DNA of 64,000 nucleotides from Gordius albopunctatus. Lineage: Eukaryota. The position numbers and the translations under genes were made by a program. Shown here one piece after another: positions 6,150 to 10,400 of the stretch. The notes beneath the pieces were generated by a model that worked only from the letters and a program-made list of their open reading frames with translations, made no database searches and was not told the origin of the DNA. Position 1 is the stretch's first letter. Each line of letters opens with the position of its first letter. The DNA lies in contig OZ193909.1 of NCBI GenBank assembly GCA_964276515.1, positions 19,592,001 through 19,656,000 of the forward strand. The letters are read 5' to 3'.

Positions 6150-7410
6150 TATGTTTGGTCTAGCAAAACTAATTTTAAGAGCCTTTTGTGCCTGTAATAT
6201 TTTGCAAAAATATAAGATTTTTGACAAAATGTATCAAATGACATTTAAAAATACATAAAATGGTTAATTCAATAATATAACTTAGCTAGTTTACATAATT
6301 TCTAACAAAAGTCACAGTATTTAGTTTAACATTCATGCCACAAAATTAAAAAAAAAACAGCTGTAAATCATCTCCCGCAATATCATACAATTAATATATT
6401 TAATCTGAATTCTTTGCATCTAGGATCGATAGCGCTATTGTGTAATTTTCCCCTTCCCACTCCCCTAACATAACGGTTTTATCTATAAACGACTCAGCCA
6501 GCCTATATCGACCCTAATAACTATTTGCCAGAAAGGAAGTTTTTACAAAGTACCGACATCTTGTAGTAGATAATCTTGATAATTGCTTTTTTACTTAATT
6601 ACTTTTCCCCTCTCCCTCCTTGTCTCCCTTTTTCTATGCTAATGGAGGGGGCGGACATTGATACCTAAATCAATAAGATCAAATGTGAAGTACCTCGTCA
6701 ATCTTTGGGAAAATACGTCCTAAGCAAGCTGTAATCCACAAAGTTGTGGCTGAACTGCATTCTCTGTCGTGATGAAATGAAAAAGACTCAACTTCCCACA
6801 TAATCTATCCATTTGCCCGAGCCTGTCGCCCAAACTAGTGAACCATGGAGAGACTTCGAGTCCTCCTGCCACAGTCTCAAGGGACAATCAATAATTAATT
6901 ACGCTTTTACATACTAACACACTAACAAATTAACACGAAAGAATTAAACGGCATAATACTTCAACCCGACCAACTAGATGCGATCTTTTTAGGCAAGAAC
7001 GCTTAGAAAAAGTTTATCACCAATCACCTAGTACAAGTTCCTATCAACACGTAAAAAAAATTAATTACCATCCGTAAACCACCAAGCCCTCTTCCCGCAG
7101 TCTGACAATAATTCAAGCGGGTATGAGTGCGCAACCGAACGAGGTAAACCATCCCTTATCTCCAGTAATTGCCGTAGATGGTATGTAAATTTTTGTTTGA
7201 CTTATGATTTTTATAAAAAACCAAGTGTGCTGCCTACTGACTTGCGGCACCTCTATACCTGTGCTACTGTGACATTTAGTCCAATAGGCCCTCATAAATA
7301 TCTCTAAAGATGTAGACTCTCACTCGTGTTAACCCGAGTAAACGTTAAGAAAAAACGACTGTTAGTCGGGCGGACCTATGTATTTATGTAATATATTTAA
7401 TTTAATGATA

Positions 7411-7462
7411 AACACTACCAACGACGGTCCCAAGTCCGTGTGAAAAAATTGGAGGGTTGGCG
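7411..7462 (+). ncRNA. Twister ribozyme motif (3' cleavage product) at the RTE 5' end
   Basis: AACACTACCAACGACGGTCCCAAGTCCGTGTGAAAAAATTGGAGGGTTGGCG: P4 ACGG/CCGT, T2 AC/GT, T1 CCC/GGG, P2 CACT/ATTG (one mismatch). P1 5' strand absent. Confidence 0.8.
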
Positions 7463-10400
7463 TCAGGTCGGAAGCCGGCTGTAAAAAGCAACTCCAAACA
7501 CCATGGCAGCTTCAAATACGAACTTATACCAGAATGCTAGGGCGTCCTCCCCAAACGACGCGCATTGCATCATCCGCCCGTGCAATGTGAAAAGTATACA
7601 CGGGTTACCGCCTCACTCACAACGAAAGCGGTTAAGGAACCTAGTTGTCGAACGGACAAGAGTGGCTAGCTGGAATGTGGGCACGCTGATGGAGAAGAGC
7701 ATCGAGGTTGCGCAGATGCTAAAAAGGCGAAGTATACACATAGCGTGTCTACAAGAAACGCGGTGGCATGGAACAAAAGCCAGGGAGCTAGGAGATGGTT
7801 ACAAGCTATACTACTCGGGTTCCCCATCACGGAAAAACGGTGTCGGTATAGTGCTTAGCGATTCCTTTAAGGACAAGGTAGTCGAAGTCAAACGATGCTC
7901 AGATAGATTGATGTGCATAAAGCTGGCGGATCAAGGCAGCCTTGTCAATGTTATTTGTGCGTATTCGCCCCAGGTTGGATGTTCCGAAAACGAGAAGGAC
8001 GAATTCTATGAGAAGCTCGAAGAAGAAATACGCTACGTGAAGCCTGACGAGAATCTCATCATCGGAGCAGACTTTAATGGCCACGTTGGGAAAGAAAGGG
8101 GCGTGTACGAACGAAATCACGGCGGACATGGCTATGGAGTGAAAAATAAAGAGGGAGAGAAGTTACTACAGATGGCGCAAGCTTACGATATGGCCATTGT
8201 GAATACCTTCTTTCAGAAGCGTACCGAACATTTAGCGACGTACAGTAGTGGAAATCACCTTACACAGGTCGACTACATATTAGTGAAGCGCAAAAATTTG
8301 TGGCAAGTTAAAGATTGCAAGGTTATACCGGGGGAAGAAATCGCCAAACAACATCGGCCAGTTGTCCTCGATATAGCAAGAAAGATTTTTCCCGTAAGGA
8401 GAAAAGTCTACACACCAAGGACAAAGTACGAAAAGCTTAAGGATAATCGTGCAAATGAAATTTTTCACGCTCGAGCAACTCCGCTCTTGAAGGTTGCAGG
8501 CTTGGAGGGCGAAATTAACAAAAGGTGGGGCACCGTTGTAAACGTTCTAAAGGAAACGGCCTTTCAAATATTGGGACGAACTAAGGGCGGCAGAGCTCAC
8601 AAGCGTGAACTATGGTGTTGGAATGACTCGGTCAAAGTGGTTATAGAAGAAAAGAAGGCGTTGTACCTACGATGGTACAAAACGAAGAAAGGAGAAGACT
8701 ACGAGGCATATCGTGAAGCGAAACGCAAAGCTAAGATAGCGGTCGCGATAGCGAAGAACGAGGCTTACACCGAGATGGCAAACAAGCTCGATACCAAGGG
8801 CGGCGACATAGTCATGTATAAACTCGCAAAGATCAGGGAGAAAAAAAAGTCGAGATGTCGGGACACTTAAAGTCATTAAAAGCGAAGAGGGACGAACGTT
8901 GTGCAAACCGAAGGAAGTCATCAAAAGATGGAAAGATTATTTCAGAAATATGATGAACAAAACGAATGATAGAAGACCGCTAGAGAGGGTGGAACCGAAC
9001 TCAAACTTGGTTTTACCATTTCAGGCTTATGAAATAGGAGCGCAACTAACGAAGATGCGGAAAGGGAAAGCGCTAGGTCCTGATGATCTACTGATCGAAG
9101 CTTGGCTTGGGTGCAAAGGAGAAGGAATCGACATAATGACAGGCCTATTTAACGCTATGCTGTATGAGAGTCGTATCCCTGACCAATGGAGGTAAAGTAC
9201 GATCATACCCATATACAAAGGTAAAGGAGACGCGCAGAAATGTGGCAACTTTAGAGGTATCAAGTTGACCTGCCACTCACTAAAACTACTAGAAAGGGTG
9301 CTAGTGAAAAGGCTCAATGACGAAGTTTGTCTCTCGCCCAATCAGTTTGGATTTGTGGCCGGTAAATCAACGATGGACCCAATCTTTGCGTTGAAGCAGA
9401 CGATGGAAAAATATGGCGACATAAGAAAGAAATTACACATGGTCTTCATCGATTTAGAAAAGGCCTACGATACGGTTCCGTGAGACTTAATATGGTGGTC
9501 CCTTAGAGCCAGAAATATACCCGAAGGATATGTTCGACTTATCAAGGAAATGTAAAATGGCGCGGTTGCATCTGTTAGGACTACCGTAGGAGTAACGAAA
9601 CCCTTCCGAATAATGATCGGACTACATCAAGGATCAGCAATAAGCCCATTCTTGTTTAATCTAATTATGGATACAATAACAAAGGACTTGCACAAGCCAG
9701 CCCCTTGGACTATGCTATATGCCGACGATATTGTCCTATGCGATGAAACAAGAGAAGGGGTTCTTCATCAGGCGAAAAAATGGTCAGAACGTTTCTCGGA
9801 ATTCGGGTTAAAGGTCAGCGAGAAGATAACGGTTTACATGCAAACGATGGGCGGTAGTCCGAAAATGCACAAAATTGACGGTCCAAGCTAAACAGAGGTT
9901 GATAAGTTCACATATCTTGGCTCACTATTACATCAAGAGGGAGGATGTACCGCCGAAGTCCATTCTCGGATCAAGAAAGCATGGCTCAAGTGGCGCAGCA
10001 TCTCCGGTGTGATGTGTGACAAAAAGATACCAATTTGGTTGAAAAGCAAGGCGTACAAATCCATCGTGCGACCGGTCTTGCTTTACGGGAGCGAAACATG
10101 GGCTGTAACCACCGCGGAGGAGAAACTCTTGCAAGTCACGGAAATGAGAATGGTCCGATGGAGCTTAGGCTACACCAAGCTGGATCGCATGACGAACGAA
10201 TCCTTGATGACAAAGATGGGTATACAAGCGACGAAGGACTTCTTAAGAGAAAATCGACTGCGGAGGTACGGCCATGTATTACGAAGAGACGAAGACGATG
10301 TCACACGCCGAACGCTGGAGATGTACGTGCCTGGAAGAAGAGGAAGGGGCAGACCACGTGCCACCTGGAAACGACTGGTCGAAAAGGATATGGACGTCAA

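Follow-up and report, generated by a model that had tools for sequence, protein, structure and literature searches.

A type-P1 twister ribozyme without P3 predicted at the first base of an RTE-type retrotransposon in the horsehair worm Gordius albopunctatus

What sets the 5′ end of a retrotransposon whose copies begin at one shared base and follow unrelated DNA? The question is raised by an element at positions 7411-10485 of a 64,000-nucleotide stretch of the Gordius albopunctatus genome (assembly GCA_964276515.1, contig OZ193909.1, positions 19,592,001 to 19,656,000 of the forward strand). We call this stretch the window and number positions from its first letter. Judged by its sequence, the element belongs to the retrotransposons without long terminal repeats (non-LTR) and is of the RTE type, full-length but dead as a coding unit. 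A model that had seen only the letters proposed that the element starts exactly at the cleavage site of a twister ribozyme. We conclude, at a probability of about 85%, that the element is headed by a type-P1 twister that lacks the P3 stem, that its RNA would cut itself between 7410 and A7411, and that its life cycle would be of the type published for Perere-3 of Schistosoma mansoni (Liu et al. 2021, PMC8501958). The predicted cut would explain why copies of the family start at 7411.

The limits of the element are set by its target-site duplication (TSD). The left copy is the 16-mer ATTTAATTTAATGATA at 7395-7410, and the right copy, with 1 mismatch (15/16), lies at 10486-10501. The base that follows is A (7411) after the left copy and C (10502) after the right; since the bases beyond the two copies differ, the first element base is 7411 and the insert runs from 7411 to 10485. 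It is 3,075 bp long and ends in a simple-repeat tail, (AAG)4, at 10474-10485. The original prediction had drawn the same boundary from a 16-bp TSD; the boundary stands, and the duplication is imperfect.

All parts of the element lie on the plus strand. The putative ribozyme portion (7411-7460) is followed by the remaining 5′ untranslated region (UTR) at 7461-7502 and by an open reading frame (ORF) whose ATG is at 7503. The first open part of this ORF (7503-8870, 455 aa, by Pfam and tblastn) holds the APE endonuclease domain and a linker, with a Pfam Exo_endo_phos match at E 2.1e-8. The rest, in a different frame (8830-10485, by the same 2 methods), holds the reverse transcriptase (RT) domain and the C-terminus, with RVT_1 at 9613-9891 (E 1.4e-11). 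In tblastn, these 2 parts resemble residues 13-445 and 441-1000 of an APE+RT relative of 1001 aa (P0169), and one protein match spans residues 13-1000; together with the TSD and the tail, that span makes the copy full-length at both ends. A frameshift near 8830-8870 and 4 in-frame stops (9193, 9481, 9553, and 9889) interrupt the frame, and the copy is therefore dead as a coding unit. The hallmarks of RTE elements are present: a single ORF with an N-terminal APE domain and then RT, no ORF1, a length of roughly 3 kb where about 3.2 kb is usual, and a simple-repeat tail. The Atlas cluster name “craniofacial development protein 2” was set aside as evidence for the clade; no literature joining that name to RTE was found.

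The first 50 nt of the element carry the core features of a type-P1 twister, as had been proposed, and form the portion that would remain on the 3′ cleavage product. Rfam alignment places A1 and A2, which lie 3′ of the scissile bond, at 7411-7412; P4, ACG/CGU, at 7424-7426 with 7437-7439; the enclosed loop L4, GUCCCAAGUC, at 7427-7436; the 3′ side of L1, GAGGG, at 7452-7456; and the P1 3′ strand, UUGG, at 7457-7460. The P2 5′ strand CACU (7413-7416) and the 5′ AC of the first pseudoknot, PK1 (7417-7418), were read by hand, and the layout of the head leaves a linker at 7419-7423 and the 3′ side of L2 at 7440-7447. The P2 3′ strand at 7448-7451, from the alignment and the contigs of the family, is AUUG in the window copy and AGUG in the family. 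A P3 stem is absent from the window head. The predicted catalytic residues are all present, namely A7411 as general acid, A7412, and G7452 as general base, in keeping with the roles described for A1 and the L1 G in twister (PMC11662667).

The pairing of these parts is nearly complete. In the window copy, P2 forms 3 of its 4 pairs, with one C.U mismatch (7415/7449). All 3 pairs of P4 form, with A-U in place of the usual C-G, and the conserved L4 core GUCCCAAG is intact. PK1, defined as the L2 “NC” with the L4 “GN” (PMC11662667), pairs A7417 with U7435 and C7418 with G7434, a double compensatory change against the consensus GC/GC. The original prediction had pointed to compensatory changes in this contact, named T2 there (AC/GU), and in the closing A-U pair of P4, and both are borne out against the Rfam consensus and 13 relatives. 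The second pseudoknot of twisters, PK2, joins the CCC of L4 and the GGG of L1; here C7429-31 with G7454-56 is intact, and CCC/GGG is invariant in 14 of 14 sequences. P1 is weaker, as the flank UGAU at 7406-7409 makes 2 of 4 standard pairs with UUGG (U-G and A-U) and leaves U.U and G.G unpaired. The base at −1, expected to be U, is A7410. A plain minimum-free-energy fold recovered P4 and missed P2, as expected where pseudoknots are involved, and does not count as evidence here.

How specific is this pattern? A descriptor made of AA, at least 3 of 4 P2 pairs, 2 of 2 PK1 pairs, 3 of 3 P4 pairs, the L4 core, and GAGGG has one match in the window, starting at 7411, and none in 300 windows simulated to the same first-order composition. 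Over the simulated set, the bare L4 core turns up 968 times with both strands counted; in the real window it is found once. The Rfam twister-P1 model (RF03160), put forward with the original prediction as a check, gave a divided answer: no match at the gathering score across the whole 64-kb window, and, with permissive filters on 7300-7600, an alignment of 7406-7460 to the full model (1-68) at 29.0 bits (E 1.8e-4) with P3 deleted. That model includes the P3 stem that the window RNA is without. An Infernal model of our own, R1, matches 7411-7460 at 33.8 bits. Rfam found no match to hepatitis delta virus (HDV)-like ribozymes in the window or in 80 related loci.

If the RNA is cut before A7411, other copies of the family should begin at the same base. 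We aligned Logan contigs of public sequencing runs to 7200-8000 at 80% likeness. The family is very abundant, with 5,798 matching contigs in run X1, 3,231 in X4, 1,565 in X6, and 23 in X3. From bin 7389-7415 to bin 7416-7442, summed depth climbs 10-16 fold in X1, X4, and X6, and in the same 3 DNA runs 48, 50, and 44 contigs, respectively, start to match at 7411, with unrelated AT-rich sequence ahead of that base, as the predicted site of cleavage would have it. Agreement among these flanks is only 0.45-0.46. Minor 5′ ends lie at 7417-7421 (14 contigs in X6 and 3 in X3). Depth over the head (7416-7469) is about double that over the element body, and the head is common also to a subfamily that drops below 80% likeness after 7498. 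Contigs of runs X19 and X8 gave no match on 7300-7700, and metagenome contigs searched for exact patterns of the family head gave 0 matches. The DNA just upstream of the insertion, at 7200-7370, is itself a repeat: in these runs its summed depth is of the order of tens to hundreds of thousands. Insertion of the RTE copy was therefore into, or next to, another repeated element.

The contigs also account for the P2 mismatch. At 7449, G replaces the T of the window copy in 96.7% of depth in X1, 86% in X3, 96.9% in X4, and 98.8% in X6, and G is found in 5 contigs of X12 and 2 of X14. With this G, the family P2 is CACU/AGUG and pairs at 4 of 4 positions, so that the mismatch is private to the window copy. 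The original prediction gives the rice twister the same P2. Among the variants listed, the only other one at 10% or more inside the ribozyme is at 7443, in the unpaired 3′ side of L2, and none other at 10% or more falls within 7411-7442; variants become frequent from 7474 onward.

Is the twister head confined to this family? Compared with the APE-bearing ORF, APE+RT proteins of about 930-1050 aa from catfish, Lepidoptera, maize, and Lolium show 40-46% identity, and many of them sit on short contigs, of 3.1-3.9 kb. By profile search, 530 relatives were confirmed among metagenome contigs, and we analysed the best 80 of these 530 loci. Rfam twister-P1 matches at E ≤ 0.01 lie upstream of the ORF in 21 of the 80 (32.2-65.8 bits, E down to 1e-12), spread over 4 batches of 20 loci as 19, 2, 0, and 0; no ribozyme family besides twister-P1 was found by Rfam in the 80 loci. 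Our own model finds 23 loci at E < 0.001 and one marginal locus, and 4 contigs start within the ribozyme. Where more than 250 nt precede the predicted ORF start, 17 of 43 loci have a twister; where more than 450 nt do, 11 of 25. These covarying twisters, upstream of the ORF and preceded by unrelated sequence, suggest that the association of twister with RTE elements is widespread.

The relatives show the changes that a working fold would accumulate. Counting only sequences with AA, P2 at 4 of 4, and PK1 at 2 of 2, the 12 clean relatives and the window family use 7 different P2 helices, each fully paired, and 3 further variants of P4. A P3 hairpin is found in every clean relative. PK1 is GC/GC in 13 of 13 relatives, compared with AC/GU in the window. 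The 10 bases upstream of A1 differ in each relative, including those that share the same P2. Covariation was measured on a MAFFT alignment of 14 sequences that was not fitted to the structure, with the misplaced 5′ strand of the window set aside. Paired cells make up 97.7%, compared with 81.6% in shuffles, and 0 of 500 shuffles reach that value; compensatory changes occur in 10 of 17 pairs, with slid-partner controls at 27%-46%, and P2 covaries at 4 of 4 pair positions among the relatives. The twister cores of the relatives agree almost letter for letter with the Perere-3 twisters in Table 1 of PMC8501958, a likeness that may lend indirect support to placement in the RTE clade.

Conservation extends past the ribozyme. 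About 35 nt 3′ of the twister, from the P1 3′ strand at 7457 to about 7495 (TTGGCGTCAGG..CCGGCTGTAAAAA), are kept in distant relatives and can be recognised in loci L003, L028, L035, L050, and L007 at about 40% protein identity. The 5′ UTR may therefore contain a second functional element. In a separate observation, 3 of the related loci (L034 716-801, L044 659-744, and L047 1061-1146) hold a plant-type C/D box small nucleolar RNA (snoRNA), Z102/R77, at 80-84 bits, above its gathering score. In these loci a decayed twister head, in which A2 is T, follows the snoRNA at a distance of about 40 nt.

How might such a head serve the element? In the Perere-3 model, T-variant twister ribozymes at the 5′ end of this RTE-clade element trim the co-transcript to 5′-AA, and the cleaved RNA serves for translation and for reverse transcription; the TSD borders on AA, and the variable P1 5′ strand comes from the target site (PMC8501958). 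The mechanism that we infer here follows that model. Transcription of the element would start at an upstream host promoter or come about by read-through, and the twister would cleave the transcript, leaving A1 with a 5′-OH. The cleaved RNA would keep the whole ribozyme except the P1 5′ strand, and would be translated and then reverse-transcribed at a new nick. The new copy would hence start at A1, and the target site would provide a fresh −1 base and a fresh P1 5′ strand. The borrowing of P1 strand and −1 base, already part of the original prediction, is thus the model in print for Perere-3.

Does an arbitrary flank permit cleavage? The original prediction held that the poor pairing of this flank might leave the copy inactive, and published assays do not support that. 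In a large twister assay, imperfections in P1 were without effect and those in P2 were tolerated, and all 4 bases at −1 allowed cleavage, A with a mean fraction of 0.72 (PMC11662667). Substrates of the form A*AA, the configuration of the window copy, cleave in vitro, less efficiently (PMC8501958). The copy is dead through its broken ORF instead. Since P1 is dispensable in these assays, most insertions would stay cleavage-competent whatever their flank. Twisters without auxiliary stems cleave best in the same large assay, with a mean fraction of 0.85 compared with 0.76 for those with P3 (PMC11662667).

Several observations weigh against a cleaving twister as the head of this element. The Rfam score of 29.0 bits is far under the gathering cut-off of 67.2, which is an operational threshold and not a structural feature; the best relative, at 65.8, is under it as well. 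Infernal mis-threads the 5′ strand of the window. MAFFT and our own Infernal model misplace this strand because P3 is absent and the 3′ side of L2 is longer; for that reason we assigned P2 and PK1 by hand and took the covariation count from the relatives. No twister was found in 56 of the 80 related loci; among the 43 that have more than 250 nt upstream, 26 are without one. The head is therefore common and not universal in this protein neighbourhood. The read evidence consists throughout of assembled contigs, which do not show RNA ends. For this reason, the pattern in 2 runs guessed to be RNA (no run is recorded as RNA) is a weak hint: cover begins at 7411/7413 with nothing upstream, and a 170-nt contig of depth 378 ends at 7413 without a loose end. 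Finally, the flank consensus before 7411 ends in T in the 3 DNA runs, and in a single X12 contig, whereas the TSD of the window copy assigns A7410 to the target. Insertion may favour targets that put the canonical U back at −1, or, in DNA this rich in AT, the T may be chance.

Of the other explanations, the best placed is that the head is a relic, derived from a twister and no longer cleaving, with 7411 as a fixed transcription start (from an internal promoter within its first bases, as in some long interspersed nuclear elements) and the motif kept for some other role, for example in translation or protein binding. Cleavage of this head is predicted from sequence, the conservation of about 35 nt past the ribozyme shows that the 5′ UTR is constrained beyond it, and the cleaved Perere-3 ribozyme supports translation of a downstream reporter (Liu et al., PMC8501958); all 3 points leave room for a relic. 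Yet the catalytic and tertiary-contact positions are all intact, PK1 has been retained through a double compensatory change, and P2 and P4 covary among relatives, as in a working fold. The 5′ end of the element falls on the scissile bond to the base, and twisters without auxiliary stems cleave well (mean fraction 0.85, PMC11662667). We regard a relic as unlikely.

Distinctly less probable still is a real twister whose true unit extends upstream to include the P1 5′ strand, with 7411 as a frequent point of 5′ truncation. Target-primed reverse transcription commonly yields such truncation, the minor ends at 7417-7421 could be of this kind, and in one relative (L022) the 4 upstream bases pair fully with the P1 3′ strand. 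Against this, the TSD of the window copy abuts 7411, 44-50 contigs per run carry unrelated flanks before that base, and upstream 10-mers differ among relatives that share one P2. A chance likeness to twister in a 5′ UTR is the least credible of all, since neither an Rfam score of less than half the cut-off nor the commonness of the bare L4 core holds up next to a full descriptor missing from all 300 simulations and matching once, at the TSD-defined first base, next to Rfam matches in 21 of 80 relatives, or next to covariation above all 500 shuffles, comparative data that already contradict it.

A cleaving twister head remains the reading that we prefer, and it makes the gordiid element a close counterpart of Perere-3. 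In both, a type-P1 twister (predicted here) forms the very 5′ end of an APE+RT element with a single ORF, the TSD abuts the AA of the cleavage site, the target site would supply the P1 5′ strand, the P1 3′ UUGG and L1 GAGGG are identical, and the 3′ end has a simple repeat; among the active classes of Perere-3 is A*AA (“3A”), the configuration of the window copy (PMC8501958). The 2 differ in host, Nematomorpha in place of Platyhelminthes, and in P3, absent here and 8-12 bp long in the S. mansoni examples of Table 1. P2 is CACU/AGUG in place of CUCC/GGAG, PK1 is AC/GU in place of GC/GC, the 3′ side of L2 is longer in the window, and the tail is (AAG)n in place of GTAA repeats (PMC8501958). Perere-3 differs further in having activity and transcript data (PMC8501958).

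Two further groups of ribozymes invite comparison. In R2, L1Tc, and other non-LTR elements, the 5′ end carries an HDV-like ribozyme (PMC8501958, PMC7761336). As with the twister predicted here, a 5′ self-cleaving ribozyme trims the co-transcript to the first element base and remains on the product; the class and fold are different, and the HDV-like type makes no demand on the sequence before the cut, whereas P1 of a twister is nominally formed with it. The second group is the minimal twisters of the rice type (PMC11662667), with which the window head shares a core of P1/L1, P2/L2, and P4/L4, 2 pseudoknots, and the absence of P3 and P5. Its P4/L4 is close to the rice CCGGTCCCAAGCCCGG quoted in that paper, with U in L4 where rice has C, compensated in L2. 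For the rice Osa-1-4 sequence given with the original prediction, the check covered P4/L4, the part quoted in that paper.

What does the locus add? As a twister-headed RTE element in Nematomorpha, it is a further example and brings no new principle or mechanism, the Perere-3 mechanism being already in print. To the one published case of twister as an RTE 5′ processing module it adds an ecdysozoan phylum and a minimal form without P3. De la Pena et al. (2020) mention, for 5′ ends in the RTE superfamily, conserved twisters that are “truncated but catalytically competent”; this is one sentence that refers to work in preparation, without data, host list, or sequences (PMC7761336). The association is the same, and the twister heads in 21 of 80 metagenomic relatives fit it; no fuller publication of the remark was found in the literature. 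A widespread association, in print so far as that one-line remark, bears on the long-open question of what twister does in eukaryotes.

The original prediction knew of no twister in this lineage, and the literature searched agrees. Among the papers listed, none joining twister ribozymes and Nematomorpha was found, a search that does not extend to the organism lists (more than 1000 organisms) in the supplements of PMC11662667, which may hold a nematomorph twister; none of 6 nematomorph names occurs in the supplement of PMC8501958. A broader proposal, which we put forward tentatively and rate somewhat below an even chance, is that a single old RTE lineage carries a heritable 5′ twister through plants, fish, insects, flatworms, and horsehair worms and contributes a large part of the twisters in eukaryotic genomes, with the nematomorph branch pared down to a flank-independent, P3-less core of 50 nt. 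If so, each insertion would be self-sufficient for 5′ processing, as with HDV-like ribozymes.

The window holds other traces of the same kind of element. A second RTE copy, at 11813-15245, has about 75%-78% DNA identity and is interrupted between 13177 and 14141 by about 940 nt of unrelated sequence; it is without a twister because it is 5′-truncated near 11813. A third RTE 3′ fragment lies at 16140-16652, and a further reverse-transcriptase remnant (RVT_1) at 25479-26483.

At the left end of the window, a mitochondrial-like block at 437-3915 adjoins nuclear genes. It comprises the C-terminus of cytb (437-862, plus strand), a tRNA (996-1062, minus), pieces of 16S rRNA (1107-1653, minus), and ND1 (3412-3915, minus). 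The ND1-like ORF is closest to Gordius sp. (only 72%), then to Gordionus (56%) and Parachordodes (55%). Freshwater metagenomes are among the data sets that contain parts of the window, and with the ND1 likeness they make a gordiid horsehair worm the most likely source. The block arose either by insertion of mitochondrial DNA into the nuclear genome or through a join in the assembly. DNA transposons are represented as well. Remnants of a hAT transposase on the minus strand at 19475-21236, with dimerisation and Hermes-type DNA-binding domains, are flanked by tandem arrays of 36-41-nt repeats at 19164-19423 and 22027-22228, which may be the subterminal repeats of the hAT element. A P-element/THAP9-like transposase remnant lies at 33076-35825, and mobile elements are dense across the window.

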